From a virus (taxonomy: Duplodnaviria; Heunggongvirae; Uroviricota; Caudoviricetes): 64,000 bases of DNA. Location: the IMG/VR virus record IMGVR_UViG_3300005323_000036. The stretch is one strand, 5' to 3'. Shown in pieces: positions 8,669 to 44,129 of this stretch (positions are counted from its first letter, which is position 1; each line of letters opens with the position of its first letter). A model generated the notes under the pieces. It saw only the letters and a program-made list of their open reading frames with translations. It did not search any database and was not told the origin of the DNA. A program made the translations under genes and the position numbers.

Positions 8669-10984
8669 ATGGATTCTGAAATATGGATAATGGAGAATGC
8701 GGGGTATATTGTCGATTATAAAACTAATAAGCCTATTATAATGCTTTTTTCCAGGAACTATAAAGATAAGTATAAAACAATTACTCACAAAGTTTATGGG
8801 TTTGAACCATATTTTTATTGTCCTGCAAATGAAACCGATAAAGAAGATCCTGATAGATATAAACTTCCTCCTAAATGCAGATATGATGATGAAATTGTTA
8901 TAGATGCGCTAGGAAGAGAAGTTAGAAAGGTAATTGTTGATATACCCAATAGAGTTAGGGATATACGAGATAACTATTCATTTACTGATATGAGTGATTT
9001 CTTATTTGAAAAGAGATTTCTTGTAGACTATAAAATAAAATATGCATATACATGGGATGAATTTAATAATAGACCAACTCCCGTAGAAGTAGAAGGAATT
9101 CTTGAACCGCGTATAGTATATTATGATATTGAAAACTTATCTAAAGATGGTGGTTTTCCTGGTGCAGAAGAAGCAAAATATCCAGTTTGTATGATCCAAG
9201 TAAAAGATAGTTATACTAAAAAACATTTCTTGTTTACATCAGGAGTTCCACAAACTAAATTTGAAGGTCATATTGCTTGTAAAAATGAAAGCGAATTGTT
9301 TAAAGTTTTCTTGGAATATATAAAAGATATAAATCCCGATGTAATCAGCGGTTGGTGGAGTTCGGGCTACGACCTTCCTTATTTAATCAAAAGGGCTTAT
9401 AATCTTGGTTTAAATTTTAATGGATTTGGTAGGATAAATCGACCATTTAGAAACTTTGACATTAAAAAGAATGAGTGGAGATCTAAAGCACCCGGAAGAT
9501 CTACACTTGATATGAAAGAAGCATTCAAGAAGAAAACTGCTGTTGATGCTCAAAGAGAAACATATGCACTTAAATCTATATCTGCATTGTATGGATTTGA
9601 ATATAAAGATTTTGGACCTACCATCAATAAATTATTTGAAGATGAAGATTGGGAAACGCTACTTCAATATGGTTTAAATGATGTTCTTGCACTTGAATTG
9701 ATTGATGAAAAAGCAGGATTATTTAGTTTCTTTGAAGGGTTGCGGAAATTTACAGGTTGCTTTCTTGACGATGTGTTGCATACGTCTCTTCCAATAGAAT
9801 CGATTCTTCTACATAAAAATATTAAACCAATGCCAAGGAAATCTATATTCGTAGAAAGTGATAAATCTAAATTTGAAGGTGCGATAGTTCACAAACCTCC
9901 GGCAGGAATTCATCATAACGTTATTACGATAGATATTGCCGCATTATACCCCAATGTGCTCTATGGCTACTCTTTATCTCCCGATGTGGATGGGTTGGTT
10001 CCTAATACATTGAGAGAAATTATGGATGAGCGAGAGAGATTAAGAGCATTAAAAAAACTAAATCCAAGCGATATAAACATTTTTTATGAAGAAACAGCCA
10101 TAAAAATTGTGGCGAATGCCTTTTTTGGTACGATAGGATCGAAATCTTTTAGATTATTTAATGAAGAAATTGCGGGAACTATTACACGTAAAGGTAGAGA
10201 AATAAATCTAATGCTCAAAGAATATGCCGAGAAATTGAATTTAAACGTCATAGCGGGGGATACGGACAGCTTATTTCTTACAGAAGTTAAAACAATAGAT
10301 GAAGGTCTAGAATATGAAAAATTATTTAATGACTTTTTAGAAAAGTTTTCAATTGAGACAAAAAGTAAAGTTATATTTAAACTTAAATTTGAAAAATTCT
10401 TTAGAACCCTTATGTTTAAATTTAAAAAGGATGGTGAACCTGCAAAAAAGAAATATATTGGTAATTTAATTTGGGAAGAAGGAAAAGATTGTAATGAATT
10501 GTATGATAAAGGTACTGAATTAACTAGATCTGATAATTCCAAAATAACAAAAGAAATATTAGAAACGTTTATGGATCTACTATTAATGAAGGATGATTCT
10601 GAAAATGCTAAAAAATATATTAAAGAATCATATGATAGAGTTAAAAATGGAAATGTAGATGTATTTGAAATTTCTATACCGAAGGAAGTTAGGAAAGCAA
10701 ATGCAAGTGGTCCTTGGCAAGAAGGTAAAGATAATACTATAAAATATTTAAATCACCATATAACCGAGGGAGAAAAACCGAGATTAATATATGTAACTAA
10801 AGAACCTTATAAACTTTGTATTGATGAGGATTTAGATATTGGAGAATGGAAAAATTACATTGACTGGAAACTTACACTTGAAAAAACTGTTACTGATAAA
10901 CTTAAAACATACGTAGAAGCAGCGGGTATGGACTGGGACGCAATTGTTCACGGCCAAAAAAGTCTCACCGATTTCTTCAGTTAA
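8669..10984 (+). CDS. polB: family B DNA polymerase with 3'-5' exonuclease domain
   Basis: Exo I is YYDIENLS. Pol motif A is DIAALYPNVLYGY and motif C is IAGDTDSLFL. Length is 771 aa. Confidence 0.9.
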   Translation: MDSEIWIMENAGYIVDYKTNKPIIMLFSRNYKDKYKTITHKVYGFEPYFYCPANETDKEDPDRYKLPPKCRYDDEIVIDALGREVRKVIVDIPNRVRDIRDNYSFTDMSDFLFEKRFLVDYKIKYAYTWDEFNNRPTPVEVEGILEPRIVYYDIENLSKDGGFPGAEEAKYPVCMIQVKDSYTKKHFLFTSGVPQTKFEGHIACKNESELFKVFLEYIKDINPDVISGWWSSGYDLPYLIKRAYNLGLNFNGFGRINRPFRNFDIKKNEWRSKAPGRSTLDMKEAFKKKTAVDAQRETYALKSISALYGFEYKDFGPTINKLFEDEDWETLLQYGLNDVLALELIDEKAGLFSFFEGLRKFTGCFLDDVLHTSLPIESILLHKNIKPMPRKSIFVESDKSKFEGAIVHKPPAGIHHNVITIDIAALYPNVLYGYSLSPDVDGLVPNTLREIMDERERLRALKKLNPSDINIFYEETAIKIVANAFFGTIGSKSFRLFNEEIAGTITRKGREINLMLKEYAEKLNLNVIAGDTDSLFLTEVKTIDEGLEYEKLFNDFLEKFSIETKSKVIFKLKFEKFFRTLMFKFKKDGEPAKKKYIGNLIWEEGKDCNELYDKGTELTRSDNSKITKEILETFMDLLLMKDDSENAKKYIKESYDRVKNGNVDVFEISIPKEVRKANASGPWQEGKDNTIKYLNHHITEGEKPRLIYVTKEPYKLCIDEDLDIGEWKNYIDWKLTLEKTVTDKLKTYVEAAGMDWDAIVHGQKSLTDFFS

Positions 10985-11217
10985 TGTATCTAATAATAGA
11001 TCTATTATCTTCTCCTTTCTTCCGAAACTATTATCATCTTTTAGAACTAATACTATGTATGGAAGAAGAATGTAGAATAATCTCAAAGAAACGGTTTGAT
11101 GAACTTATTGAAGCAGAAGCAATGTTAGAGGCACTTTATGCTGCAGGTGTTGATAATTGGTCTGGGTATGATGAAGCGATGAACATTTTAGACGAATCAT
11201 CTAATGTAGAAGAATAA
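10984..11217 (+). CDS. hypothetical protein (start uncertain: 10984 or ATG 11059)
   Basis: Overlaps the polB stop in an ATGA-like arrangement. The C-terminal motif is AAGVDNWSGYDEAM. Confidence 0.3.
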   Translation: MYLIIDLLSSPFFRNYYHLLELILCMEEECRIISKKRFDELIEAEAMLEALYAAGVDNWSGYDEAMNILDESSNVEE

Positions 11218-11237
11218 AACTATTATTATTGATTATT

Positions 11238-11387
11238 ATGGAAGAATCAACAGAACTTGAATACCTGAAATGGTTTCATCAAATGGCAGATTTTGGTCCA
11301 TCTGATGGAGATGTAAGAATTCACTTACAAGAAATGTTTGAAAGAGAAACTGGAAAAAGAGTTCCTTCAAACTGGAAATATGAATAA
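11238..11387 (+). CDS. hypothetical small protein
   Basis: 49-aa ORF MEESTELEYLKWFHQMADFGPSDGDVRIHLQEMFERE…. Confidence 0.3.
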   Translation: MEESTELEYLKWFHQMADFGPSDGDVRIHLQEMFERETGKRVPSNWKYE

Positions 11388-11745
11388 AATTTATGGTGAA
11401 ATAATTATGAAACAATCATTAGAAAAAACAGAAAATGATATTAAATTTATTAAAGAAGTTATTAATGACCCCGATCCAGAAGATCTCACTTGGGTTTACC
11501 ATGATAAACCAGACCAATTTTACAAATGTGAGATCATAGATGACATTGATGAATCTAATATTGGAAAAATGGTAAAACGGCATTCTAAAAATATTGATAA
11601 AATATCTGTTGGGAAGATACTTACTCATTATAAAAATAATAAAAATGCAGATGATTTTACCGATGTAATTAGAAGATATAAAGTAATAAAGATCTGTGGT
11701 AACAAATGTAAGTATAATGATATGTGTAAAAATTGCAAATTATAA
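11380..11745 (+). CDS. hypothetical protein with C-terminal Cys cluster
   Basis: First ATG is at 11380. The C-terminus is CGNKCKYNDMCKNCKL. Confidence 0.4.
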   Translation: MNKIYGEIIMKQSLEKTENDIKFIKEVINDPDPEDLTWVYHDKPDQFYKCEIIDDIDESNIGKMVKRHSKNIDKISVGKILTHYKNNKNADDFTDVIRRYKVIKICGNKCKYNDMCKNCKL

Positions 11746-11767
11746 ATTTTTTAATTACTAGTATATC

Positions 11768-12511
11768 ATGAAAAATCAAGCACGTATTAAGTATCTCTAT
11801 TTCAGGGATATTGTAAACATTGTAAAGGCATGTAACATTGAAGCGCGATTGCATATTGAAGAAGATAGAATCTGGCTTAAATGCGTAGATATATCAAATG
11901 TGATGATGGTTAATCTTAATATTCCTAAATCAGTATTTGAATCTTACAGCCTTAAACCACAAGTTATTGGCATTGATTTTGCTAAACTATCTACATTCTC
12001 CAACATGACATATGGTTATGTAGATATTATCCAGGGTTTCAAAGATCTAGATGATACATTTGATATTAAATTTGAATCCGGTAAATATAATCTAACAATC
12101 AAAAATGGATTAGATATCACGACAATTAAGAAAGAACCCAATGACTTTAATGAAGAAATTCTCGATACATCTGCAATTGTTAGTTCACCATCAGTTAGAA
12201 AATTCCTCAAAGAAGTCAAGAAAGAATCAAGTAGAGTAAAAATAAGTATTGTGTCTGGAGATCTCTATTTCAATGCATATGATGAATCCGAATACATTTA
12301 TGAATTTGTTACCAGAGATGCTGTATCATCATTAGACTCCAATGCAAAAACATCACTATATTCAATTGAATATATAATCGATTGCTTCAAATATGTTAAA
12401 GGTGATGTTGAAATTTTAATGGGAACTGACAAACCATGTAAAATTTCATTCGGATTAGATGGAATAAACATTGGATCATATGTATTGGCGCCCAGAATTG
12501 AAGGAGATTAA
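11768..12511 (+). CDS. PCNA-type sliding clamp
   Basis: 247 aa. The N-terminal pattern fits PCNA domain 1. The C-terminus GSYVLAPRIEGD matches the PCNA tail YYLAPKIEDEE. Confidence 0.75.
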   Translation: MKNQARIKYLYFRDIVNIVKACNIEARLHIEEDRIWLKCVDISNVMMVNLNIPKSVFESYSLKPQVIGIDFAKLSTFSNMTYGYVDIIQGFKDLDDTFDIKFESGKYNLTIKNGLDITTIKKEPNDFNEEILDTSAIVSSPSVRKFLKEVKKESSRVKISIVSGDLYFNAYDESEYIYEFVTRDAVSSLDSNAKTSLYSIEYIIDCFKYVKGDVEILMGTDKPCKISFGLDGINIGSYVLAPRIEGD

Positions 12512-14490: not shown

Positions 14491-14513
14491 ATTTTGAGAG
14501 TTTTTTGATACAT

Positions 14514-15266
14514 ATGATTAAAATTAAACATCTTTTTATTCTAATGTTTGTTATGATGCTAATTGCATCTGTAATGTCAACACCTATGGCAACTTCATCT
14601 ATTGAAGTTCAGGGAGCAGGTGGTATTGGAATTCATACAAGCACTAGAACGTCTGAAGTAACTGCAGATGGTATTGGAAGTCACGGGACATATCAGATTC
14701 AATCAGCATCTCGTAAAGTTCTGACTGTTGGAATGGCATCTATTAAAGCAAAAGAAGTCAGTAACCAACAGTATAAGAATACACTTGATTCATCCGTTGA
14801 AGGAGAATTTAGAGATGCTGCACTTGTATCAGATCGTTATGTTCTTGAAGACAATAAAAATGTTGATGGTAGCGCGTCATGGTATGCAGCATTGAATGAA
14901 AATGCAACTCCAAGTTATCAGTATGTAGAAACAGAAGCACTACAGATGGGAAGCGGTGGAGGAGCATATAAATCAGCAGGTGTAATGAATGAAGCGAACC
15001 TGACATCGTCTATAAGTGCTGAAGGAAATGCTGGTGGAATTACCTACAAGACATATGCAACAACAGAAGCGGGTTTCACTCCAGGAAGTAACGACATTGA
15101 CTTCCGTAAGACAGAGCGCACCTATGATGGTCAGTTTGATAAGAATGGCACTGGATATGAACTTGGTATTGATTATATCTGGAAAGATTCTAGCAACCCA
15201 TTTGAAGTTGTAAATAACACTACATCTTCTTTAAATAAAACAACAGAAGTAAATCTTACAGAATAA
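14514..15266 (+). CDS. secreted Gly/Ser/Thr/Ala-rich protein (signal peptide; possible surface/adhesin-like)
   Basis: True ATG is at 14514 (the track start at 14505 is TTG). The N-terminus is MIKIKHLFILMFVMMLIASVMS. No Cys. GC is about 40% against about 30% in flanking DNA. Confidence 0.5.
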   Translation: MIKIKHLFILMFVMMLIASVMSTPMATSSIEVQGAGGIGIHTSTRTSEVTADGIGSHGTYQIQSASRKVLTVGMASIKAKEVSNQQYKNTLDSSVEGEFRDAALVSDRYVLEDNKNVDGSASWYAALNENATPSYQYVETEALQMGSGGGAYKSAGVMNEANLTSSISAEGNAGGITYKTYATTEAGFTPGSNDIDFRKTERTYDGQFDKNGTGYELGIDYIWKDSSNPFEVVNNTTSSLNKTTEVNLTE

Positions 15267-16159: not shown

Positions 16160-16302
16160 ACAATTAAGAAATAATAGTTTTCCAGTATATAAAGAAGAAT
16201 AAATGCTTAAATGTTTAACTAACTGGTTGTATATTATAAATATTGACTTTAATAAATACATATAATTATATACTTTAGAGATTAAACATTATAATTAATT
16301 TT

Positions 16303-17316
16303 ATGTATAAAATAGGTTTGATGATTACTTATAATGAATCTCACTTTATTAAATACTCACTTCCTAATTTATTGAGATGTGTAGATTATGTTTTAGTATT
16401 AGATGGATCTAATAAAGGAGAAGGAACGCGTGAATATTTAGAAAGTTTAGATAATGTAATTGTATTCTATGAAGAGTTTTGTCCCGAAATAAAAACATAT
16501 AAAGATCGTAGACAGTTTCTTTTAGATAGGGGAAGACCAAAAGCATCTCATTTTATTGTTATTGATGCTGATGAAATTTTAAGTGAAGAATTAATCAATT
16601 ATCTAAACAACAATGATTGGAATGATGCTATTTATTGTAAATGGTGGCATGTTGGTAATAAATTAAATTTAGTAAATAAAGATAGGCTAAAAGATACACA
16701 AGGAATTGCATTTATAGATAAGGGAATTAATTATCATGGTAATGAATATGTTCATGAAGATAAAATTCCAATTGGAAGAGAAGAAAACTATGTAATAGTA
16801 AATTATCCATTATTTCATTTTGGGATGTGTAATACAGATTACATAAATATTAAAGAATCTTATTATAAATGTTTATCAATAAAAGAAGGCTATCCAACTT
16901 ATAGAATAAATTTAGACTATCTTAATAACTATTCTAATGTAATTTATACAGAAATACAAAAATATCACTATCCAGATAATATTAATGAAGATATTCTTAA
17001 TATTGATAAATCAATGAAGAACAAATTGTTTGAATTAGTTAAGAAAAATTATATGAGATATTATGATCTTGATATATGGTCAGATGAATTGATAAATTAT
17101 TGCAAGAAAGAATGTGTATTGTTTAAAGAAAATTTAATTTACATTAGACAAAATGAAAGTCATAAAATAAAATATTTTAAAATTATGTATCAAGGGTTTA
17201 AATACAATCTTGAAAAAGGTAATTATATGAACATTTTAAAAGGAATGTTAGAAATATATAACTATTTAAAATCTCATGCTAGATACAGAATTAGTAAATT
17301 TTGGAGTAATTCATGA
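16303..17316 (+). CDS. glycosyltransferase (GT2-like fold)
   Basis: N-terminus MITYNESHFIKYSL…VLDGSNKGEGT…IVIDADE. First gene of the glycan cluster. Confidence 0.55.
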   Translation: MYKIGLMITYNESHFIKYSLPNLLRCVDYVLVLDGSNKGEGTREYLESLDNVIVFYEEFCPEIKTYKDRRQFLLDRGRPKASHFIVIDADEILSEELINYLNNNDWNDAIYCKWWHVGNKLNLVNKDRLKDTQGIAFIDKGINYHGNEYVHEDKIPIGREENYVIVNYPLFHFGMCNTDYINIKESYYKCLSIKEGYPTYRINLDYLNNYSNVIYTEIQKYHYPDNINEDILNIDKSMKNKLFELVKKNYMRYYDLDIWSDELINYCKKECVLFKENLIYIRQNESHKIKYFKIMYQGFKYNLEKGNYMNILKGMLEIYNYLKSHARYRISKFWSNS

Positions 17317-18419
17317 TTAGAGTTGCAATCATCAGAGAAAATGGTTTATTTTATGGTGGAACTGAAAAGTTTCTTCAGATTATGGCCGCTGAAACAAACA
17401 AAGATGAATTTCAAATTGATTATTATACGACAGATAAAATGAGATCTCCAGATAGAAAAAAATATCTATTGGATAATAATGTTAATATAATTAAATTCAA
17501 AGTAAAGCCTAGATATGAGAGGATACCTTTTAGAATTTTAAATCTACTTAATAATAATTGGTCTGATTTTTGGCATAAATTTAATAAAGTTAATAATAAA
17601 ACTCCATATGATGTAATTCAAATTACTAATTTTGGATGGAAAGAAGAGCCATTTCAAAGTTTTAAAGATGATTATAAAGTATGTGAATTTACAGTATTTC
17701 CACCATATGTTAAATTTCCAGGAGTAAAACATCACATTTTAAATTCTGAATGGTTAAGGGATCAATGGTTGTTTAGATTTGCCGAAGGACATAGTGGAAG
17801 GCGTAGCAAAACTACAGTAATACCAGTTCCAGTAAAGAAGACATCAGATAAAAACTTAAGAAAAGAACTTGGAATTTCAGAAGATACCATTGTATTTGGT
17901 TTCCATCAAAGAAATGATAATGGATTGTTTTCTCCTGTTCAATTAGATGCGTTTTCTAAACTAGAGAAAGAATGTGATGATGTAATGATGTTTGTATTAA
18001 ATGGGTGTGATTTATACAAAAAACAAGCAGAAAATCTAAATATAAAAAACATTAAATTTATTCCGTATCAAGATGAGGTTTCTCCATTTCTCAATACATT
18101 AGATGTTTATGCACATGGTAGAAAAGATGGTGAAACTTATGGTATGGTATTAGCAGAAGCAATGTTACATGGTTTACCTTGCATAAGTCACACTACGCCG
18201 TATTATAATGCAATGAATAGTGTTATAGGAAGTGGTGGGTTTGTTGTAAATTCAGGACATGAATATTTTCAGGTGATGGAAGATATGTTAATTGATTCTT
18301 ATAGAAATGCAACATCTAAAAATGCATTGCGAATTGCTAATGAAAATTATACATATGATGTAGTTATTCCAAAAATAGAAGAAGTATGGAGAAAAGTTGC
18401 TAGAAAGGACGTGCTATAA
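17313..18419 (+). CDS. glycosyltransferase family 1/GT4-type
   Basis: C-terminal GT4 signature ETYGMVLAEAMLHGLPCISHTTP. It overlaps its neighbours in ATGA/TAATG fashion. Confidence 0.65.
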   Translation: MIRVAIIRENGLFYGGTEKFLQIMAAETNKDEFQIDYYTTDKMRSPDRKKYLLDNNVNIIKFKVKPRYERIPFRILNLLNNNWSDFWHKFNKVNNKTPYDVIQITNFGWKEEPFQSFKDDYKVCEFTVFPPYVKFPGVKHHILNSEWLRDQWLFRFAEGHSGRRSKTTVIPVPVKKTSDKNLRKELGISEDTIVFGFHQRNDNGLFSPVQLDAFSKLEKECDDVMMFVLNGCDLYKKQAENLNIKNIKFIPYQDEVSPFLNTLDVYAHGRKDGETYGMVLAEAMLHGLPCISHTTPYYNAMNSVIGSGGFVVNSGHEYFQVMEDMLIDSYRNATSKNALRIANENYTYDVVIPKIEEVWRKVARKDVL

Positions 18420-19405
18420 TGGAAGAAGATCTGGTATGTTGTGTTATATCGTCTTGGAATCGCCTTGATATATTAAGACAGAATATTGATGCAATTTATA
18501 AACAAGATTATCAAAACAAAGAGATTATTGTTATTGATAATTGTAGTAATGATGGAACACAAGAATATTTAAAAGATAAATATGAAAATCAGTGTAAATG
18601 GGATTTCTTCTATGAGATAATGCCACATTCGAAATTTACTGCAATGCAAACTCTTAATCGTGGATTTTGGATTGCTAAATATGATCATCATGCTAAATAT
18701 ATTCTCGTGTTGGACGACGATTGTATATTACAAGAAACTAATAGTATCTCTAAACTTGTCGAAGTTGCTAAAAGTAAAAAAGATGTTGGAATGGTCGCAT
18801 GTAATGTAAGAGGTCCTGAAAATAAAATCCCACAAACAGATTTCAAATTTGCATTAAATACACATATTAATTTGAAATCATTACCAAGAAATCCATTTAG
18901 AGTGTATGATTATATTGGAGCATGTGCTTTATATAATACTGATATTTTTAGTGGCTATGATGAATCATTTGGAATTTATTGGAATGAATCAGATACAGCA
19001 TTAAATATTCTTTCAAGAGGGCATGATGTTCTATTTGAGAAGAATGTGCAACCTATACACTTGTATTCTCCAAAACAACGTAATGTAAATAAAGGTGTGT
19101 ATTATTATATTAAAAATGGTAATACTATAATAAATAGATATTTATCATTTAAAAACAGATTAGTATTGATACCCTTAAGACTTGCTACAATGATGATTTG
19201 GGTATGGAGATTTAAAGATATCAAACTTGTAATTAAAGCAATTCTTATAAGTATTCTCGGATTGATTCAGATATTCTATATGAAAGATCGAGTTAAACCA
19301 ATTAATGATACTATTCAAAATGAAATAAACCAAGCATATACTGGATGGTATTTTAGGAAATTTTATGAATGGATATTTGGTTATTCAATTTATGAAGGAT
19401 TATAG
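18419..19405 (+). CDS. GT2 glycosyltransferase with two C-terminal TM helices (GtrB/Dpm-like lipid-linked sugar transferase topology)
   Basis: VISSWNRLDILRQNIDAIYKQDY…IIVIDNCSNDGT and VLDDDC (DxD). The C-terminal helices are LVLIPLRLATMMIWVW and LVIKAILISILGLIQIFY. Confidence 0.65.
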   Translation: MEEDLVCCVISSWNRLDILRQNIDAIYKQDYQNKEIIVIDNCSNDGTQEYLKDKYENQCKWDFFYEIMPHSKFTAMQTLNRGFWIAKYDHHAKYILVLDDDCILQETNSISKLVEVAKSKKDVGMVACNVRGPENKIPQTDFKFALNTHINLKSLPRNPFRVYDYIGACALYNTDIFSGYDESFGIYWNESDTALNILSRGHDVLFEKNVQPIHLYSPKQRNVNKGVYYYIKNGNTIINRYLSFKNRLVLIPLRLATMMIWVWRFKDIKLVIKAILISILGLIQIFYMKDRVKPINDTIQNEINQAYTGWYFRKFYEWIFGYSIYEGL

Positions 19406-19422
19406 AAAGAGGATTTTTATTT

Positions 19423-20148
19423 ATGACTGATATACTGCAAATTGAACCAACTAGAAACTGTAATAAGAACTGTAAAACGTGCTCAAGAGATTCGTCTTAC
19501 TCTGGTGATATTTCTATTGAAACATTTTTTAAAATTTTAGATTATCATAAAAGTGATCATTTTGATATTCTTAAAATTCAAGGATTAGGTGAGCCATTTA
19601 TGCATCCAGATATTGTGAAATTATCTGAAATTGGTAGAACCTATGGATTTAAGAATATCATGACCATTACAAATGGTTCATTTCCAATTGTTGGAGAATT
19701 TGATAATGTTATGTTTTCTATCAATAAATTAAATGAATCTGATTATCATGATCAAAGAACAATTAATCACATATTAGATACAAAAAAGAATGGATACAAT
19801 GTAAGAATTAATTGTGTATTATCAGATCAAACAAAAGATGATATAAATAAAGTTACAGGATTTGCTGATAAATATTCTATACCAATTGATATAATTCCTA
19901 TGGAAGTTTGGTATGGATGTGAATATAAAAATTATGATGAATTGCATAATCAAGCAAAGAATGTATATAATAGATTCAACATAAAAATAAAGAATAGAAT
20001 TGATACATGTGAATGGTATATAAATTCACTCTATTATGATTATCTTGGAAGATTACATCCATGTTGTATCAGAATGACCGATGAATATATTATTACAGAT
20101 GATGAGAAATTTGACTTCAATTCATGCTGTAAAAACTGTCCCGTATGA
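19423..20148 (+). CDS. radical SAM enzyme with C-terminal Cys-rich (SPASM/twitch-like) region
   Basis: CNKNCKTC (Cx3Cx2C), GLGEPFMHPD, and C-terminal C…CC…CC..C. Confidence 0.65.
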   Translation: MTDILQIEPTRNCNKNCKTCSRDSSYSGDISIETFFKILDYHKSDHFDILKIQGLGEPFMHPDIVKLSEIGRTYGFKNIMTITNGSFPIVGEFDNVMFSINKLNESDYHDQRTINHILDTKKNGYNVRINCVLSDQTKDDINKVTGFADKYSIPIDIIPMEVWYGCEYKNYDELHNQAKNVYNRFNIKIKNRIDTCEWYINSLYYDYLGRLHPCCIRMTDEYIITDDEKFDFNSCCKNCPV

Positions 20149-20167
20149 AGAGGAAAATAGTGATATT

Positions 20168-20734
20168 ATGAAATTAGATAATGGCGTTGTTGGTTGCTTA
20201 AGTCCGATTGAAGGAATTGCATTGGAAACATTAAGTAGAAAATGTAGTCCTGAAAATGCAATAGTTAATATTGGATGTTTTAGAGGAAAGAGTCTTACAT
20301 ATATTACAACCGGAGTAAAGTCTAGATTTGTTCAATCTTCTAAAAAACAAGTTTATGGAATTGATATAAGAATAAAAGATATACTTAATGATATAGAATC
20401 TATAAAACATAATACTACTCTATTACAAGGTTCTTCGTATGATCCTGTAATATATAATCAAATAAAAGAACCCGTTGAATTTGTATTTATTGATGGTGAT
20501 CATTCTATAGAAGGTTGTTTAAAAGATCTTGAAATATATTGGAACAAACTTATTTCTGGTGGAGTTATGATGGTTCATGATAAATTTGGAACTAATGGAA
20601 ACATTCACGAACCTGGAGTAAAAGAAGCATGTGAAATTTTTGAGAAAAAACATTTCAATGAATTTGTTCCTGATGATTGGAATGAATCTCCAGTCCATAG
20701 AGTAGATTCAAGTTGGATAGTTCAGAAGAGATGA
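20168..20734 (+). CDS. class I SAM-dependent methyltransferase (Methyltransf_24/TylF-like)
   Basis: FVFIDGDHSIEGCLKDLEIYWNKLISGGVMMVHD. ATG at 20168 was chosen because the longer track form overlaps the radical SAM gene. Confidence 0.55.
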   Translation: MKLDNGVVGCLSPIEGIALETLSRKCSPENAIVNIGCFRGKSLTYITTGVKSRFVQSSKKQVYGIDIRIKDILNDIESIKHNTTLLQGSSYDPVIYNQIKEPVEFVFIDGDHSIEGCLKDLEIYWNKLISGGVMMVHDKFGTNGNIHEPGVKEACEIFEKKHFNEFVPDDWNESPVHRVDSSWIVQKR

Positions 20735-22061: not shown

Positions 22062-22784
22062 ATGTTAGGAATATTTAGAAAACAAGATACATTTCTTCCA
22101 TATGCTGAAGTGAAATCGTTATCTGAAGCATATGAAGTTGCTGTTAGGAATGTTATAAATCAACATGAAGAGGTTGTTACTGAAGATGGTGAAGTTACGT
22201 GGCAATCTAATCCATTTACGATCTGTATTACACAACCTTGGAGAACTAATTTTATTCATAAATTCTCCCCATATGGAAGAGAATTCTATAAAAAATATGC
22301 AGATGATATTGTAAATGGAACATCAAATAAATTTGTTTATACATATCACGATAGACTGTTTCATTATAGGAAACATTATTATGATGATCTTATTAATGAA
22401 TTTATACCAAGTGATGTTTATGGTTTAATTTTAGATGAGTATATAGACCAAATAAATTATGTTGTAGACAAATTAGTTTATGAACCCACATCAAGACGCG
22501 CCATTGCAATTACAATTTCTCCGTATATTGATGAAGTTAAAAAAGATATTCCATGCCTTCAAGAAATTCAATTTTGGATTAGTGAAGGAAAATTAAATAT
22601 TTATGTATTTATGCGATCTAATGACATACTTTTGGGAATGCCTCAAAATATACGAGGATTTTATAAACTGCAATTTGAAGTAGCAAAACGAATTGGTATT
22701 CATTGTGGAAAACTGTTTTATACAGTTACAATTCCACATGCATACATTAATCGGGATAAAAATGAATTAAGTAAATGGCTATAA
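22062..22784 (+). CDS. thymidylate synthase ThyA-family enzyme (dUMP-specific; divergent, possibly a hydroxymethylase)
   Basis: TSRRAIAITISP matches the ThyA SRRIIVSAWN region. IPCLQEIQFWI matches PCHAFFQFYV (the Cys is kept but His is replaced by Leu). MRSNDILLGMPQNI matches QRSCDVFLGLPFNI, retaining the uracil-specifying Asn. IPHAY replaces the GDTHLY loop. Confidence 0.55.
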   Translation: MLGIFRKQDTFLPYAEVKSLSEAYEVAVRNVINQHEEVVTEDGEVTWQSNPFTICITQPWRTNFIHKFSPYGREFYKKYADDIVNGTSNKFVYTYHDRLFHYRKHYYDDLINEFIPSDVYGLILDEYIDQINYVVDKLVYEPTSRRAIAITISPYIDEVKKDIPCLQEIQFWISEGKLNIYVFMRSNDILLGMPQNIRGFYKLQFEVAKRIGIHCGKLFYTVTIPHAYINRDKNELSKWL

Positions 22785-27546: not shown

Positions 27547-28461
27547 ATGTCCATTCAATTTAAACCAATGCTTGCGTGTAATGCAGATATTAGTAAAATA
27601 AAATACCCTGTTTTAGCAACCCCAAAACTAGATGGTATACGATGTATTATAAAAAATGGAAAATGCATTTCACGCAATTTAAAAGACATTCCAAACAATT
27701 ATATTAGAGAATTATTAATAAATACTATCGGAAATGACTATTATGGAAACTCTAGAATAATATTTGATGGCGAAATTATATGTGGTAACTTTAATACTAC
27801 ATCATCATCTGTAATGAGAAAAACTGGAACACCTATCTTTACATATCATATATTTGATGCTATAACCTTTAATAATTATAATTTGCTATATGAAGATAGA
27901 ATTAATTTTTTAAAAGAATGGTTTTGTGTATTTAAATTAAGAAACAATAAAGAATTTATATCTATAGTAGAACCATATTGTATATCAGATTTTGATGAAT
28001 TACAAAAATATGAGCAAAGGTGCATTAATCTTGGTTATGAAGGCATATGTATTCGCGCGATAGATTCCCCATATAAATTTGGGCGATCTACGGTAAAAGA
28101 AGGATATCTTCTTAAAATAAAAAGGTTTGAAGATTCTGAAGCAGAAATAATAGATTTTGAAGAATTAATGCATAATAACAATGAAAAACTAACCGATGCA
28201 TTAGGTTATACAGATCGTTCAACTTGTAAAGAAAACATGATTCCAATGGAAATGCTTGGATCTTTAAAAGTGAGAGATATTAAAACTAGAATTGAATTTT
28301 CACTTGGTTCCGGTTTTGATTTAAATACGCGCAAGGAAATCTGGAATAATAAAAATAATTACATTGGAAAACTTGTTAAATATAAATATCAACCATCTGG
28401 TAAAAAAGATCTTCCAAGATTCCCAACATTTATTGGAATACGAGATGAAAATGATCTTTAA
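27547..28461 (+). CDS. ATP-dependent DNA ligase (minimal type)
   Basis: Motif I is PKLDGIRC (KxDGxR). Size is 304 aa. It sits next to the second PCNA paralogue. Confidence 0.8.
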   Translation: MSIQFKPMLACNADISKIKYPVLATPKLDGIRCIIKNGKCISRNLKDIPNNYIRELLINTIGNDYYGNSRIIFDGEIICGNFNTTSSSVMRKTGTPIFTYHIFDAITFNNYNLLYEDRINFLKEWFCVFKLRNNKEFISIVEPYCISDFDELQKYEQRCINLGYEGICIRAIDSPYKFGRSTVKEGYLLKIKRFEDSEAEIIDFEELMHNNNEKLTDALGYTDRSTCKENMIPMEMLGSLKVRDIKTRIEFSLGSGFDLNTRKEIWNNKNNYIGKLVKYKYQPSGKKDLPRFPTFIGIRDENDL

Positions 28462-31559: not shown

Positions 31560-32447
31560 ATGTTATTGTTCTTTATTATAGGACTAGTATTAGGAATTAT
31601 TGGACTAATGGGACTACTAAAGAAGCCATCTTCAGATTATGATGATAGTTTCATTGGTAAAATAATCAGTGGCATATTATTAATTGTAGGATTATTTTTA
31701 ATTGTTAGTTCGTGTGTTATTGTTATTAATCCAGGAGAAGTTGGAGTGGCAGTTACTCTTGGTAATTTAGATAATAATGTTAAATATTCTGGAATTAATT
31801 TTGTATTACCGATTACAGATATTGTTATTTTTAACGCAAAAACTCAAGTAGATACACAACAGGCGAATGTTCTAACATCAGATGCACTTACTATTGCTAC
31901 TGATGCATCGATTAACTATAGAATAGATCCAGCATCAATTATATCCATTTACAAAACAATGGGAACTGAATATAAAGAAACTGTAGTCGATCCTACGATT
32001 CGTTCTGTAATCAGAGATGCATTTGCTACTTATGATACTAAAACACTCTATAGTTCAGGCAGAACTAACTTGAGTGAAGAAATTGAAAAACGTCTTTCTG
32101 TAGATCTTAAACCACGCGGAATTATAATTGAAGATGTTCTACTTCGTTCAGCAGAACCACCGGCATCTGTAAAAACTGCAATTGAACAGAAACAGCAGAT
32201 GGAACAGGAGATCCAGAAGAAGCAGTTTGAAGTTCAAAAGGAACAGGCTGAAGCAAATCGTAAAATTGCAGAGGCTAATGGTATTGCAGAAGCAAATCGT
32301 ATCATCAGTAATTCTATTACACCTGCATATATTGAATGGTATACTGTTGATATGCTTAAGAATCACCACAGTGATGCTATGATGTATATTCCAACTGGTT
32401 CAAATGGTCTTCCAATGGTAACATCATTACCATCTAACAAATCATAA
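31560..32447 (+). CDS. SPFH/band-7 (stomatin/prohibitin/HflKC-like) membrane protein
   Basis: N-terminal TM, then VINPGEVGVAVTLGN… SPFH core, then a coiled coil EQKQQMEQEIQKKQFEVQKEQAEANRKIAEANGIAEANRII. Confidence 0.75.
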   Translation: MLLFFIIGLVLGIIGLMGLLKKPSSDYDDSFIGKIISGILLIVGLFLIVSSCVIVINPGEVGVAVTLGNLDNNVKYSGINFVLPITDIVIFNAKTQVDTQQANVLTSDALTIATDASINYRIDPASIISIYKTMGTEYKETVVDPTIRSVIRDAFATYDTKTLYSSGRTNLSEEIEKRLSVDLKPRGIIIEDVLLRSAEPPASVKTAIEQKQQMEQEIQKKQFEVQKEQAEANRKIAEANGIAEANRIISNSITPAYIEWYTVDMLKNHHSDAMMYIPTGSNGLPMVTSLPSNKS

Positions 32448-39676: not shown

Positions 39677-40321
39677 TTGACACTTGAAATAGCAATAGAT
39701 GTAAGAGAACCACAGTGGCTGCGAACATGGCTGCCAAAACAATTTAAAGATATAAAATTTGAATTTAAAACATTGATTGAGGGTGATTTTTCAAGTGATC
39801 ATGTTCTTATAGAAAGAAAATCTATTGATGATTTATGGTCTTCACTACACGATGGTAGATTTAGATCACAGGTATCTAGATTGACAACTCATCAATGTGA
39901 CAAGATTGTTATGTTTCTTGTTGTGGGATCTATTGATGAATTCATTTATAAGATGCGTAAACTGCATTTTAAAGTAAGTGAAGATATGTTACATGGTGCA
40001 ATAGCATCTTTAATTGTTCGTGACAATATAAGGGTTCTGTGTTGCTCTAATGAGAAGCACGGACTAAAAGAAATGGTAAGGGTAATTCAAAAAATCGAGG
40101 AGGAAGATATATTAAATTATCCGGCAGCCAGAGATGAAAACATGCTATTTGCGCGATTATTAAACATTCCAAAAAATACATGGTTTGATATTAAAGAAAC
40201 CTATGGAACTTCATTAAAATATCTATCCTCGTTAGATAAGAAAGATTTCATGAAAGTTAAAGGAATTGGAAAAGTAAAAGCAGAAAGTATAGTAAACATT
40301 CTCCATAATGGATGGGAATAG
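39677..40321 (+). CDS. XPF/Mus81/Hef-type (ERCC4) structure-specific nuclease with C-terminal helix-hairpin-helix
   Basis: IAIDVREP…GDFSSDHVLIERKSIDDLWSS is the ERCC4 GDx(n)ERKxxxD signature. C-terminal VKGIGKVKAESIVNIL is the HhH. The only start that keeps the IDVRE motif is TTG at 39677. Confidence 0.65.
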   Translation: MTLEIAIDVREPQWLRTWLPKQFKDIKFEFKTLIEGDFSSDHVLIERKSIDDLWSSLHDGRFRSQVSRLTTHQCDKIVMFLVVGSIDEFIYKMRKLHFKVSEDMLHGAIASLIVRDNIRVLCCSNEKHGLKEMVRVIQKIEEEDILNYPAARDENMLFARLLNIPKNTWFDIKETYGTSLKYLSSLDKKDFMKVKGIGKVKAESIVNILHNGWE

Positions 40322-41903: not shown

Positions 41904-42380
41904 ATGGCAGGTGTTGGTAAAAAGACCATTTCAGCAACTATTAAGGAATCTACATATAATAAATTGAAAGATATGGGAATACCACCTACTTCTATTGTTG
42001 GTGATTTTTTAGAATTATATATAACTGAAATGGATGTTGATGCTGCTGCATTTTTTAAGGCTGCTACAATTAAGGAAAAGATTAAACGACTTGACATTGA
42101 AATACAAGATCTTGAATTTAAAAAAGAACTCCGTGATAATTTAAAACGATTAATGGACGCCACATTAGAAGAATATAAACTTAATAAAAACAAACGTAGA
42201 TTAAGAGATTTAATTCTAAAATTAGATAAGATAATAATCATGTATAATTATGATATTGAAAAGATACAAGAAAAATATGTAGGGTTATTAAAAGAAATTA
42301 AACGATTAGATTCTAAATTTGAATTATTAAAAAGAATTAATAGTGTTAAGTTGATTAATGAAGGCGTTGAAAAAGTATAA
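41904..42380 (+). CDS. coiled-coil protein (possible DNA-binding N-terminus)
   Basis: 158 aa. The C-terminal two thirds are heptad-rich (KEKIKRLDIEIQDLEFKKELRDNLKRL…). Confidence 0.4.
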   Translation: MAGVGKKTISATIKESTYNKLKDMGIPPTSIVGDFLELYITEMDVDAAAFFKAATIKEKIKRLDIEIQDLEFKKELRDNLKRLMDATLEEYKLNKNKRRLRDLILKLDKIIIMYNYDIEKIQEKYVGLLKEIKRLDSKFELLKRINSVKLINEGVEKV

Positions 42381-42593
42381 AATAATGATTTAATTTTAAA
42401 ATATTGTTAAATGTGCTTATTCTATTAAATTGGACTTTTCAAATAAATATTCTAAAATTATAATTGCTTCGAAACTTGTTGATACATCTTCTTCTGAATG
42501 TGAAAATTGTGGGTTTAATTTATAAAAATGATATTTATCTACATAGTAATTATAAAGATTTTTTATATCTTCATCTGATATTTTTAATTCCAT

Positions 42594-43385
42594 TTAATTT
42601 CTGACCATCTTTTTTATATCTTTTTCATTGATTTCTATTGTTTTATTATATAGTTGGAATGGTATTTTAAAAATGTTATAATTCCAGGTGTAATCTGAAT
42701 TGTCGATATTAAGGATTACGTAGCCATTGTCAGGTTGTTCGATTGTTCTTTTTCCAATGTAGCCGTCAATGCCTTTCCAACACGGAACTGATATTGATGT
42801 GTCATTTGAATCCAGAGATGCGTAGAAATGGTGAGTATGTGAGTTGATGAAGATATCTACATCGGTTCCTTGTGCTTTTGCAATAAATGCTTGTTTGCGT
42901 TGTGCAGTGCATCTTGTATAAGGAAGGCTTGCGAAATCTCCATAGTGTTTAAGATATATTGTTATTGTATTATTGATTTTAATGAATTGCCAATCTCCGA
43001 TCCAATCAGCACCAACGAGATCTGATACAATTTTATCTCCAGTTGGATTACCGGTATGATAAGTTGACCCCTGTGTACAATAGATCTTTTTACAGGGAAT
43101 CATATCAACAAGGGCAGCCGCGCATGTTGCTTGTGCATGAATATCAGTAGTCCATACACCAAGTCCTTGTTCTGCTTTGTTTGGACCTTCGATGATATCC
43201 CCATTTAGGATAAGAATGTCTATTTCACCAATAGAATTAAGCATCTGACAGAACTTTTCAAATAGGAATGTTTGAATCTGATTAGCACGGATTGTAATAC
43301 CGGAGTAAGGATCGGTATATTCAGGAAGCATCAATCCAACATTACTCCCTATGTGCCAATCACCAAGAACTAAAACTTTTAACAT
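42594..43385 (-). CDS. calcineurin-like metallophosphoesterase
   Basis: GDWHIG (motif I), NGDIIEG (motif II) and INSHTHH (motif IV/V). ATG and stop verified. Confidence 0.7.
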   Translation of the reverse strand: MLKVLVLGDWHIGSNVGLMLPEYTDPYSGITIRANQIQTFLFEKFCQMLNSIGEIDILILNGDIIEGPNKAEQGLGVWTTDIHAQATCAAALVDMIPCKKIYCTQGSTYHTGNPTGDKIVSDLVGADWIGDWQFIKINNTITIYLKHYGDFASLPYTRCTAQRKQAFIAKAQGTDVDIFINSHTHHFYASLDSNDTSISVPCWKGIDGYIGKRTIEQPDNGYVILNIDNSDYTWNYNIFKIPFQLYNKTIEINEKDIKKMVRN

Positions 43386-43543
43386 GAATTAAGTGACTCT
43401 CCAAAAAGATATTCGAGCATAAGAATGGCTTCTAGGTATCTAGCGCGACTTATATCAGACATGGTTAAAGTTTCCTTTGGTAAGATATCTCTATTTCTTT
43501 TATACATCTCTTTAATTTCTTCATCACTTACCTTTAGATCCAT
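43382..43543 (-). CDS. hypothetical small protein
   Basis: 53 aa, MDLKVSDEEIKEMYKRNRDILPKE…. Its stop overlaps the phosphoesterase start. Confidence 0.3.
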
Positions 43544-43546
43544 TCT

Positions 43547-43900
43547 CTATGTCCCCTCCCCTACATCATCATAAATGTGAATCCATTGAGTTTCATATGG
43601 GTATTTTTTGGTTCCTGTTCCGTCAGTTACTTTAAATGCTGCTTTATACATTCCAGTTGTAGCAGTTTCAAACCCATTTACAGTTGGAAAGTTAAATTGG
43701 ATTATACCGTGGGTAGCATCTGTAATTTCACAAGATTCTCCATTTACAATATAATCAGTAGATTCATCAGCAATTAGATAAAAATTTACAAGACAATTTG
43801 TAAGATCTCTAGCAGTTGGTTGATTTTCAATAAAATCAAGATCTAAAATTGTATATTCTAGTGGAGTTGTATCACCACGCCTAATACGAATAGTCTGCAT
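43547..43900 (-). CDS. hypothetical virion-associated protein
   Basis: 117 aa at the distal end of the tail module. Confidence 0.4.
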   Translation of the reverse strand: MQTIRIRRGDTTPLEYTILDLDFIENQPTARDLTNCLVNFYLIADESTDYIVNGESCEITDATHGIIQFNFPTVNGFETATTGMYKAAFKVTDGTGTKKYPYETQWIHIYDDVGEGT

Positions 43901-43967
43901 AAAAACTATTTAAATATTAAACGTTAATATATTTAAATGTTTGTCAAAAAATAGAAATGTTTAAAGT

Positions 43968-44129
43968 TTATGCGGGGCAGTTAGCAAGAATCCAATCTGC
44001 TTCTTCTTGTGTAATTTTACCATTATTTACAAGAGTCTGAACCTGCGCTGCTGTAATTGTTCCTGCACAGTATCTTACATAAACAATTTTACCAAGTGAA
44101 GATAAATCATCATAAGAAGTAATAGTCAT
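43968..44129 (-). CDS. XkdX-like small phage protein (paralogue 2)
   Basis: MTITSYDDLSSLGKIVYVRY…NNGKITQEEADWI. The motif GKITxEEY resembles Bacillus PBSX XkdX. Confidence 0.4.
   Translation of the reverse strand: MTITSYDDLSSLGKIVYVRYCAGTITAAQVQTLVNNGKITQEEADWILANCPA

Follow-up and report, generated by a model that had tools for sequence, protein, structure and literature searches.

The radical SAM enzymes closest to the one described here are twitch-type enzymes acting on sugars or sugar-nucleosides, namely BlsE (the cytosylglucuronate decarboxylase of blasticidin S), SpeY, BtrN and DesII. To our knowledge none of them has a GT2 glycosyltransferase as obligate partner or fusion domain, whereas such pairing or fusion is a feature of the viral enzyme. 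Some thymidine hypermodification pathways also include a radical SAM enzyme. Virus-encoded GT2-type enzymes are described as decorating virion proteins or the host envelope, for example in virion glycosylation of the mycobacteriophages Che8 and Rita (Freeman et al., 2023, cited in PMC11256854) and in the prophage-encoded TarP. As far as could be found, neither the mycobacteriophage cassettes nor the TarP system includes a radical SAM enzyme.

In the virus studied here, five ORFs with verified coordinates are tightly packed on the plus strand at positions 16303-20734 of the window, which is the whole stretch of DNA analysed (64 kb, half of a 127-kb contig). The presence of PolB, PCNA, RNR and PKD-domain structural genes, together with relatives in IMG/VR, confirmed that the window is viral, and the source is a large, AT-rich, probably archaeal virus with archaeal-type replication genes. 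Reading frames as long as these (217-368 codons at 26-28% GC), all with orthologs in other contigs (37-64% identity), indicate real genes rather than chance. An earlier, sequence-only reading had recognised three glycosyltransferases, a radical SAM enzyme with a Cys-rich C-terminus and a Methyltransf_24 methyltransferase, and profile matches bore this out: ORF2, ORF3 and ORF5 exceed the Pfam cut-offs, and ORF1 falls below while its orthologs pass. The same reading described five consecutive overlapping genes. They are consecutive, and ORF1/ORF2 (4 nt) and ORF2/ORF3 (1 nt) do overlap, but ORF3 and ORF4 are separated by 17 nt. The 68-nt overlap between ORF4 and the longest version of ORF5 (20081-20734, 217 aa) is probably a longest-ORF artefact because the ORF5 orthologs are only 179-189 aa long, which agrees with initiation at M30 (20168), and from there ORF5 probably does not overlap ORF4. 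Nor is the cassette a self-contained toolkit, as had been proposed: the 64-kb window has no recognisable nucleotide-sugar synthesis gene and, by tblastn, no UDP-galactopyranose mutase (UGM), and neither there nor within the cassette itself was a flippase, a polymerase or a priming transferase identified. A protein with a signal peptide and rich in sequons is encoded immediately upstream.

The real unit of the cassette is a pair that the earlier reading overlooked and that is uncharacterised, the GT2 glycosyltransferase ORF3 (18419..19405, +, 328 aa) and the radical SAM enzyme ORF4 (19423..20148, +, 241 aa). ORF1, the GT4 enzyme ORF2 and the methyltransferase are lineage-specific accessories to it. 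Among 34 non-redundant radical SAM proteins of the true family, 26 had enough flanking sequence to judge the linkage. The two enzymes are fused in a single ORF in 7 of these 26 lineages and a GT2 gene is directly adjacent in 16; no GT2 neighbour was detectable in three (L072, L073 and L086). Linked lineages cover at least four virus backbones, including PolB viruses, phages with the order portal<-GT2|rSAM->...<-terminase and phages with the fusion beside or near TerL, and orthologs of ORF3 itself directly adjoin the radical SAM gene in two unrelated backbones. ORF3 and ORF4 are thus a conserved unit, adjacent or fused in many unrelated viruses. The fusions involve two GT2 subfamilies, a P0162-type, which the ORF3-family profile does not match, and a TuaG-like L014-type, which it matches weakly; this difference argues for independent fusion events. 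Both families are small. ORF3 has only 16 family members. Of the radical SAM family, which is largely virus-restricted, about 33 representatives are present in a set of 1.84 billion proteins, and the genomes of 50,697 isolated phages contain none.

ORF4 is a minimal radical SAM enzyme whose auxiliary Fe-S Cys motif is of the twitch type. Among solved structures, BlsE and MoaA are its closest relatives, and the best single-sequence PDB match is SpeY, a twitch sugar dehydrogenase. Identity to BlsE and other sugar-acting twitch enzymes is only 15-21%, and ORF4 reached no curated family threshold (for TIGR04466, BlsE, it scored 21 bits where 400 are required). The nearest cellular relatives by profile score (A1 66-275 bits) are uncharacterised radical SAM/SPASM enzymes linked to UGM in Geobacteraceae, Arcobacter, Sulfurimonas, Nitrospirae, Omnitrophota and others, and they sit in surface-glycan clusters of the polysaccharide or LPS type. 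The earlier notion that the virus encodes a cassette for glycan modification is supported. In the wider clade, a UGM (Glf) gene lies 0-1.4 kb from the radical SAM gene in about 30 cellular loci, a pairing for which we found no paper in the literature. For example, in the Geobacteraceae-type family members (A1 263-275 bits) a UGM gene (E=9e-136) overlaps the radical SAM gene, and a GT9 heptosyltransferase-like gene follows the latter; the gene order is epimerase-Glf-TylF/MT24-rSAM-MT-GT2 in Sulfurimonas and GT2-Glf-x-rSAM-MT in Arcobacter. The cellular and viral enzymes have the motifs KLQGLGEP and D-x-x-G-R-x-HPCC in common, as well as the same partner classes (GT2, TylF/MT24 or other methyltransferases, sugar epimerase or aminotransferase). 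However, most of the cellular proteins are about 340 aa long with a full SPASM domain, no NCBIfam model passes for them, and their constant partner is the mutase rather than a GT2; the viral loci, like the window, lack a mutase gene.

It had been suggested that the cassette might instead make a glycosylated RiPP. In that case the radical SAM enzyme would mature a peptide, in the manner of the sactipeptide, epimerase or anSME types, or would produce a metabolite resembling a nucleoside or cofactor, and the glycosyltransferases and methyltransferase would decorate its product. NCBIfam gives weak matches to metalloenzyme maturases, HxsC and the mycofactocin radical SAM enzyme, but all its peptide-maturase matches lie far under their cut-offs. 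The L014 fusion weakly matches MftF, the mycofactocin GT2, and one distant cellular relative (L041) adjoins an NRPS condensation domain. Against this, ORF4 has only 241 aa, starts directly at the radical SAM core and has no RRE or PqqD-like domain; no small, precursor-like ORF beside the pair is conserved across lineages, and the 95-104 aa ORFs of L008 and L009 are homologous neither to each other nor to window proteins. Neither a protease nor an exporter was seen in the cassette, and both the fusion to GT2 and the UGM neighbourhood of the relatives point to sugar chemistry. We consider a peptide or small-molecule product very improbable. The SpeY match, the UGM and GT9 neighbours of the relatives and the lack of an RRE are best read as an enzyme that would act on a sugar rather than on a peptide.

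The GT2 partner matches Glycos_transf_2 (PF00535, E=1e-19, 71 bits against a cut-off of 23). DDD99-101 and YWNExD are invariant, and DxD, YWNExD and H..S..R are common to orthologs from different backbones. An AF2 model (pLDDT 88.9) has a GT-A core with four C-terminal helices, and the best Foldseek match was TarP (E=3e-13), with PcManGT, hyaluronan synthase and GalNAc-transferases also matched. The GtrB/Dpm-like membrane anchor reported earlier could not be upheld: it is one hydrophobic helix (KD 2.26) that is marginal in orthologs and missing from other subgroups, and neither GtrB nor DPMS is among the top 50 structural matches.

These features bear on whether the cassette alters a lipid-linked or wall glycan of the host (S-layer or N-glycan precursor, LPS or a teichoic-acid-like polymer), blocking superinfection or keeping progeny from sticking to debris, as in serotype conversion or TarP-type wall teichoic acid (WTA) glycosylation. 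The top structural match is itself a prophage-encoded WTA glycosyltransferase, although its relation to ORF3 is limited to the GT-A fold, with no sequence relationship, and PcManGT, an archaeal membrane mannosyltransferase, ranks high. The C-terminal helices of ORF3 and its PolB-virus orthologs are marginally hydrophobic, with a clear TM segment in one of the latter (P0038). The LPS and polysaccharide clusters of the cellular relatives and the sequon-rich protein upstream would also suit such a role. By contrast, the portal-group and fused GT2 forms have no predicted transmembrane segment, which makes access to the acceptor from the cytoplasm likely, and no gene for a flippase, a polymerase or a priming transferase was identified in the cassette. 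Several tailed phages have the pair between portal and terminase genes, in the late structural and packaging block, which resembles phage glycosylation cassettes. The few close cellular homologs of the ORF3 and ORF4 families are also unlike what is expected of a recently host-derived serotype-conversion gene. Envelope remodelling as the main role thus appears rather unlikely.

In PolB viruses, the cassette lies within a module for replication and nucleotide metabolism, with PolB/PCNA on one side and TS-like/ligase/RNR genes on the other. The thymidylate synthase (TS)-like neighbour (22062..22784, +, 240 aa) matches PF00303 (E=3e-16) over its C-terminal half only. Virus-restricted enzymes beside a thymidylate-synthase-family gene in such a module recall T-even DNA glucosylation and thymidine hypermodification. 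If the TS-like protein were a pyrimidine hydroxymethylase, the cassette could build a modified sugar on hydroxymethyl-pyrimidines of the viral DNA as an anti-restriction measure, a more elaborate analogue of T-even glucosyl-hmC. The TS-like gene lies 0.1-5 kb from the radical SAM gene in 7 of 16 loci, including L019 with its different GT2 subtype; sequence cannot separate TS homologs from dUMP hydroxymethylases, and among the weaker phage matches some carry the annotation TS or pyrimidine hydroxymethylase. A largely virus-restricted family is typical for DNA-modification enzymes, and a cytoplasmic polymer would suit the soluble fused forms. However, the gene opens a run of ordinary nucleotide-metabolism genes (NrdD, glutaredoxin, dCMP deaminase), and two modules may simply abut. 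Its product keeps SRR, PC, RSxD, PQN and HxY, with the uracil-specifying Asn and the dUMP-binding residues, and its best full-length phage match, the archaeal 'methanogen-type thymidylate synthase' of Methanobacterium virus PhiF1, accounts for the short C-terminus. Portal/terminase-group loci, on contigs of 10-19 kb, carry the pair without a TS-like gene, unlike DNA-hypermodification sets. No hydroxymethylase signature, DNA kinase (including hmU-DNA kinase) or dNTPase (including dCTPase and dUTPase) was found among the window proteins scanned, and the cellular relatives of ORF4 occur in glycan rather than DNA-modification clusters. The T4 alpha/beta-GT families differ from the GT2 and GT4 types here; the phage DNA glucosyltransferases known to us are GT-B, not GT2. 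DNA hypermodification is therefore regarded as improbable, and the TS-like protein as a syntenic neighbour whose membership in the cassette is putative.

With moderate confidence, we favour a glycan assembly or modification cassette in which the GT2/radical SAM core acts on a sugar, two more glycosyltransferases extend it and an O-methyl group caps it. In the order that we propose, reductive cleavage of SAM by ORF4 would give a 5'-deoxyadenosyl radical that abstracts hydrogen from a nucleotide-sugar donor or a freshly transferred residue, leading to oxidation, epimerisation, decarboxylation or dehydration as in BlsE, SpeY, BtrN and DesII; ORF4 itself is viral and belongs to no antibiotic pathway. 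Cellular relatives, only 20-37% identical, suggest by analogy that the sugar may be a UDP-hexose or hexofuranose. ORF3 would then move it onto an acceptor. Our leading guess for the latter is virion structural proteins (e.g. Ser/Thr-rich PKD-domain tail or fibre proteins), followed by host lipid-linked envelope precursors. Structural proteins in the window contain 19-27% Ser+Thr versus 7-13% in enzymes, which is compatible with an acceptor role but is not evidence for it. Virion glycosylation is putative here, and there is no sequence relationship to the mycobacteriophage cassettes beyond the GT-A fold.

Further residues would be added by ORF2 and ORF1. ORF2 (17313..18419, +, 368 aa) is a GT-B/GT4 enzyme matching PF00534 (Glycos_transf_1; E=1e-11, 45 bits against a cut-off of 26) and PF13692 (E=6.5e-10, above cut-off), with an EX7E motif (GETYGMVLAE) and BshA-type and Alr3699 GT4 enzymes as PDB relatives (E about 1e-5); L002, L008, L009, L016, L068 and L071 carry orthologs. 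ORF1 (16303..17316, +, 337 aa), a GT-A/GT2-like enzyme found in 4-6 related loci, stays below the cut-off for Glyco_tranf_2_4 (E=2e-4, 22 bits against 27.5), but its orthologs in L009 and L016 pass that of PF00535. Its profile aligns with the ORF3-family profile (92% probability, E=5e-7) across the half that binds the nucleotide and the DxD (IDADE), and the one relative with a solved structure is the flagellin O-GlcNAc transferase GmaR, a GT2 enzyme (E=4e-4). ORF5 (20168..20734, +, 188 aa from M30) would O-methylate, and hence cap, the product. This class I methyltransferase had been called TylF/Methyltransf_24-type. The second half of the name stands, given matches to PF13578 (Methyltransf_24; E=5e-13, 50 bits against a cut-off of 26) and PF04989 (RMNT_CmcI; E=1e-8, 35 bits against 23), whereas PF05711 (TylF) had no match and the kinship is at clan level only; the match to NCBIfam rhamnosyl O-methyltransferase (E=4e-4) is far under its cut-off. 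ORF5 orthologs recur after the radical SAM gene in PolB-virus lineages and L019. The methyltransferase of the portal group is a different protein of 221-228 aa with the motif I IIDLGACFGG.

Five consecutive genes on the plus strand occupy window positions 16303-20734, in agreement with the sequence-only reading: ORF1 (16303-17316, 337 aa), ORF2 (17313-18419, 368 aa), ORF3 (18419-19405, 328 aa), ORF4 (19423-20148, 241 aa) and ORF5, the longest frame of which is 20081-20734 (217 aa). A divergent minus-strand gene upstream of them ends at 16261. Open frames of 217-368 codons in DNA of 26-28% GC are not expected by chance, and each of the five ORFs has orthologs on other contigs (37-64% identity). 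The genes had been called overlapping, and this holds for ORF1/ORF2 (4 nt) and ORF2/ORF3 (1 nt), whereas ORF3 and ORF4 are separated by 17 nt and the 68-nt overlap of ORF4 and ORF5 is probably artefactual, produced by choosing the longest ORF. A start at M30 (20168), giving 188 aa, is proposed for ORF5 because its orthologs are 179-189 aa long. The promoter scan, in whose scope archaeal promoters do not fall, was uninformative, with 63 counts, in line with 68±9 in shuffled sequence, and 0 terminators.

ORF4 is considered to be a radical SAM enzyme (rSAM), on which several lines of evidence agree despite a Pfam score below the cut-off (PF04055, 24.1 bits against 29.5). Members of its family score 43-56 bits, and most of them carry a precomputed PF04055 annotation. 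The CX3CX2C motif is present as C13-N-K-N-C17-K-T-C20 and is kept in all family members with an intact N-terminus, the GGE-type SAM-binding motif reads GLGEP, and the protein conforms to a partial (beta/alpha)6 TIM barrel. The Cys-rich C-terminal region noticed earlier proved to be of the twitch type: the signature C196-x12-G209-x4-C214, C215, C236-x2-C239 is invariant in the family, and these five conserved Cys would fit one auxiliary cluster. The full seven-Cys SPASM arrangement is absent from ORF4, and the Pfam SPASM model matched no more than weakly (E=0.003), in the fusion protein of locus L014. No curated NCBIfam rSAM equivalog was reached by ORF4 among those covered (BlsE, MoaA, NirJ, HpnH, anSME, MftC, the W-cofactor maturase and others), the best being TIGR04317 with 45.6 bits against a cut-off of 380. 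Its viral and cellular relatives likewise stayed below every curated NCBIfam cut-off.

The rSAM family is very small: a word-indexed search of 5.8 billion proteins returned 26 members, and about 33 full-length representatives scored above 160 bits when 1.84 billion proteins were searched exhaustively by profile. The ORF3 family, equally small, comprised 16 proteins and was co-distributed with it. A tblastn search of 50,697 isolated phage records with the rSAM protein gave no match; single-sequence scans of IMG/VR with rSAM and PolB gave no match either, but an alignment-based scan did find relatives. Loci were drawn from ENA, JGI, Logan, IMG/VR, GTDB genomes and JGI metagenomes and de-duplicated at 95% identity, which left 34 rSAM lineages, 26 of them with sufficient flank for judging. 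A GT2 gene directly adjoined the rSAM gene in 16 of the 26, and in seven an N-terminal GT2 domain was fused to rSAM in a single ORF. Three lineages (L072, L073 and L086) had no detectable GT2 neighbour; the 318-aa ORF adjoining rSAM in L086 was tested and is not a GT2, and this locus remains an exception.

The GT2-rSAM arrangements sit on unrelated virus backbones. Separate genes occur in viruses with PolB and a window-like backbone (L002, L008, L009, L016, L068, L071), while larger cousins of these viruses carry a GT2-rSAM fusion of 502-530 aa (L010, L011, L063, L064). In tailed phages of the portal group, the pair is placed between portal and terminase in the order portal<-GT2 / rSAM-> ... 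<-terminase (L004-L007, L012, L075-L081), and other phages have a different fusion beside or near the terminase (L013/L014, L057, L082). The GT2 domain of the fusion represented by protein P0162 has a DPDE motif and is unmatched by the ORF3-family profile; that of the L014 type is TuaG-like and is matched weakly (26 bits). As these two domains belong to different GT2 subfamilies, more than one origin of the fusion is probable. Where the partner is a separate ORF3-type protein, the versions from the two main backbones are orthologs with about 25% identity and have DxD, YWNExD and H..S..R in common. Linkage and fusion together are the strongest genomic evidence available that both enzymes would act on the same substrate.

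The three glycosyltransferases (GT2, GT4, GT2) proposed for ORF1-ORF3 were recovered, ORF2 and ORF3 by Pfam cut-offs and ORF1 through its orthologs and a profile match. ORF2 is assigned to the GT-B/GT4 enzymes by PF00534 (45.2 bits against 26.4), by Glyco_trans_1_4, which it also passes, and by its EX7E motif (E-TYGMVLA-E). A 305-nt stretch of ORF2 (17900-18204) shows 66% DNA identity to GT1-family genes of Prochlorococcus phages P-SSM2 and P-SSM5, and the region had no other nucleotide-level match to isolated phages; the match is uninformative. ORF3 scores 71.3 bits with PF00535 (cut-off 23.3), and its D99-D100-D101 is invariant. Its AF2 model (pLDDT 88.9) places four long helices after a GT-A core, with phage TarP, archaeal PcManGT, Chlorella-virus hyaluronan synthase and polypeptide GalNAc-transferases as best solved matches. 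ORF1 alone falls below the cut-off of the Pfam GT2-type model (22.2 against 27.5), but its orthologs pass PF00535 (33.6 and 27.8 bits against 23.3) with an invariant IDADE. In hhalign, the ORF1 family matched the ORF3 family with 92% probability (E=5e-7) over the nucleotide-binding half and DxD, and at profile level ORF1 may thus be counted as GT2-like (GT-A). Among solved structures it has a single relative, the GT2 protein O-GlcNAc transferase GmaR.

ORF3 had also been credited with a GtrB/Dpm-like C-terminal membrane anchor, of which a single clearly hydrophobic helix (residues 270-288, KD 2.26) is what stood. The equivalent helices of its orthologs are marginal (KD 1.5-2.0) and bear Arg or Lys, the portal-group and fused GT2s have no helix above 1.4 KD and no predicted transmembrane segment, and an anchor as a family trait was thus ruled out. 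Neither GtrB nor DPMS was among the best 50 structural matches of ORF3, in which PcManGT ranked about 20th. Membrane association is possible for the ORF3 of the window and is not a property of the GT2-rSAM module.

For ORF5, the Methyltransf_24 half of the "TylF/Methyltransf_24-type" label was borne out (PF13578, 50.2 against a cut-off of 26.3) and TylF proper was not, PF05711 being unmatched, so that membership holds at clan level only. ORF5 also matched PF04989 (RMNT_CmcI, 35.4 against 23.2), and the NCBIfam rhamnosyl O-methyltransferase model gave 19.9 bits against a cut-off of 400. A Methyltransf_24 gene follows rSAM in the PolB-virus lineages and L019, and lies between GT2 and rSAM in L068 and L071. 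Portal-group phages have instead a 221-228 aa protein with the class-I methyltransferase motif I IIDLGACFGG (Pfam only at E=0.04); its 228-aa form is not homologous to ORF5, and class-I motif I is all they have in common. GT4 and ORF1 are confined to closer relatives of the window. With these two so restricted and the methyltransferase varying, the five-gene cassette is a lineage-specific elaboration of a two-gene core. In a 114-kb relative (L002, 4593-7876), four genes are inserted among the GT genes, encoding a nicotinamide/nicotinate phosphoribosyltransferase, a second radical SAM protein (282 aa, unrelated to the first), a DUF5662 protein and a small AAA_33/zeta-toxin-like kinase.

The rSAM family is not exclusively viral, this being ruled out by a subgroup in LPS-like clusters on Geobacteraceae-type contigs (L017, L018, L072, L073), which belongs to the true family by its score with A1, the profile for rSAM relatives (263-275 bits). 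There the rSAM gene overlaps a gene for UDP-galactopyranose mutase (UGM/Glf; E=9e-136 to 4dsg), with a GT9 heptosyltransferase-like gene next and a DegT-like gene in the vicinity. In a wider clade of rSAM/SPASM relatives of about 340 aa, a UGM/Glf gene lies 0-1.4 kb away in about 30 loci, which are spread over many phyla of bacteria and archaea, the two ORFs often overlapping. The UGM-linked cellular loci are L017, L018, L021, L024, L038-L046, L072, L073, L091-L096, L122, L126, L135 and L137. The gene order is epimerase-Glf-TylF/MT24-rSAM-MT-GT2 in Sulfurimonas and GT2-Glf-x-rSAM-MT in Arcobacter. rSAM/SPASM and UGM/Glf appear to form a conserved, undescribed enzyme pair of LPS or polysaccharide clusters; no NCBIfam model passed for it, and the searchable literature on rSAM together with galactofuranose or UGM gave no description of the pairing.

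A sugar substrate is suggested by analogy, because the top structural neighbour of ORF4, BlsE, acts on a sugar-nucleoside (MoaA, SuiB, SkfB, viperin and anSME follow), and because its best single-sequence PDB match is the twitch sugar dehydrogenase SpeY and its cellular relatives lie beside UGM, GT2 and methyltransferase genes. The sequence-only reading had offered a glycosylated RiPP pathway instead, with rSAM of a peptide-modifying type. This is disfavoured: rSAM has neither an N-terminal extension nor a recognition or leader-binding domain, no small, precursor-like ORF is conserved beside it across the 16 loci compared, and the marks of a RiPP cluster are thus lacking.

Glycosylation of hydroxymethyl-pyrimidines in DNA is a live but minor alternative, drawing on the location of the cassette in the replication module and on a thymidylate-synthase (TS)-like gene (22062-22784, plus strand, 240 aa) that is syntenic with it in 7 of 16 loci. 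The same gene, however, also heads an ordinary nucleotide-metabolism block. Its product, in which the TS profile match is confined to the C-terminal half, keeps the dUMP-binding residues, the catalytic Cys and the uracil-specifying Asn, and its best full-length match is the archaeal 'methanogen-type thymidylate synthase' of Methanobacterium virus PhiF1, although TS-family sequence alone does not separate synthase from hydroxymethylase. The short C-terminus was ruled out as a hydroxymethylase mark, archaeal 'methanogen-type' ThyA proteins being equally long. Portal-group phages, moreover, have the GT2-rSAM pair without the TS-like gene, and those window proteins that were scanned yielded no dCTPase, dUTPase or hmU-kinase. 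On balance, and by a modest lean, we favour a glycan cassette with sugar-directed GT2/rSAM chemistry.

From the observed gene set, folds, linkage and contexts, we infer that rSAM would generate a 5'-deoxyadenosyl radical and abstract H from a sugar, either in a nucleotide-sugar donor or in a newly transferred residue. It may thereby oxidise, epimerise, decarboxylate or dehydrate the sugar, and the auxiliary cluster would accept electrons or anchor the substrate. ORF3 would transfer the sugar, ORF2 and ORF1 would lengthen the chain, and ORF5 would O-methylate it.

Much lower confidence attaches to any single acceptor. Our guess is that virion proteins lead, because portal-group and fused GT2s are without predicted transmembrane segments, the pair adjoins portal/terminase genes in several phages and the structural proteins are Ser/Thr-rich; host lipid-linked glycans and then DNA would come next. 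One possible glycoprotein acceptor is a 253-aa protein (14505-15266, plus strand) with a signal- or anchor-like hydrophobic N-terminal segment, 21% Ser+Thr and the most N-X-S/T sequons per length among the proteins checked (7, or 2.8 per 100 aa). It is encoded 1 kb upstream of the cassette, where GC content is locally raised, and is also conserved in both L010 and L011. A bolder proposal, which we regard as unlikely, is that GT2-rSAM is a largely virus-specific bifunctional enzyme that installs a radically rearranged sugar (for example a decarboxylated, deoxygenated, C-branched or ring-contracted hexofuranose derivative) on capsid/tail proteins or genomic DNA; the outcome would be a previously unknown hypermodification resistant to glycosidases or restriction, and a new radical SAM reaction class common to the UGM-linked cellular enzymes.

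Virus-encoded glycosylation is already known, and TarP-type host-wall modification is one kind of viral GT function. To our knowledge, no radical SAM enzyme bound to a GT, as adjacent genes or as one polypeptide, has been described. The searchable literature contained nothing on rSAM+GT fusions, or on rSAM in phage hypermodification together with glycosyltransferases. Mycobacteriophage virion glycosylation, as cited in PMC11256854, is a further known example of viral GT cassettes. Compared with the known viral GT cassettes, the radical SAM partner is new here. This rSAM lies outside the curated families, is paired with GT2 in most lineages, is repeatedly fused to GT2 and is related by homology to equally uncharacterised UGM-adjacent cellular enzymes. 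The pairing offers a testable entry to new sugar radical chemistry, with the natural fusions as ready constructs, and solving the viral rSAM would also annotate the cellular UGM-linked family, widespread in many phyla. Should virions or DNA prove to carry the product, this would bear on host recognition, on evasion of immunity or restriction, and on the biology of an uncultured, probably archaeal virus.

The window is about half of a 127-kb contig (ERZ27247097 k141_474768), and its IMG/VR relatives are 136-143 kb long. The samples of origin seem to be anaerobic. Archaeal/eukaryal-type replication and repair genes (PolB, a PCNA-like clamp, an ATP-dependent DNA ligase and an XPF/ERCC4-HhH nuclease) are found at 8669-12511, 27547-28461 and 39677-40321, besides a ribonucleotide reductase and a minus-strand block of PKD/DUF2341 structural genes. 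PolB is about 25% identical to the polymerases of T4-like cyanophages and to that of Haloarcula tailed virus 2, the latter with the highest bit score. PHROGs gave almost no matches on the structural genes, and it is therefore from PolB, PCNA, XPF and the IMG/VR relatives that the virus type is judged. The window belongs to a large virus of an undescribed lineage, probably archaeal, the host being assigned indirectly. The contigs L016 (CAZCND010000021.1) and L019 (JBAZJW010000007.1), in MAGs of 'Candidatus Saccharibacteria' and 'Paceibacterota', carry the viral gene order of the window (GT2-ORF1-GT4-GT2-rSAM-MT24...TS-like-HNH) and are probably viral contigs mis-binned by composition.

A tRNA scan found none in the window. 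At about 42000-44000, the switch of gene orientation from plus to minus coincides with a sign change in GC skew, and the structural block (44-48 kb) reaches a higher GC of about 0.37. The product of the gene at 31560-32447 (plus strand) is a strong match to SPFH/Band 7 (stomatin/prohibitin-like) proteins (PF01145, E=2e-34). In related viruses, NrdD, PolB and portal genes are interrupted by inteins or homing endonucleases (L002, 13696-16818; L008, 5204-9271; L009, 423-3242; L007, 6040-8829), and L007 also has an IS605 OrfB/TnpB-like gene.
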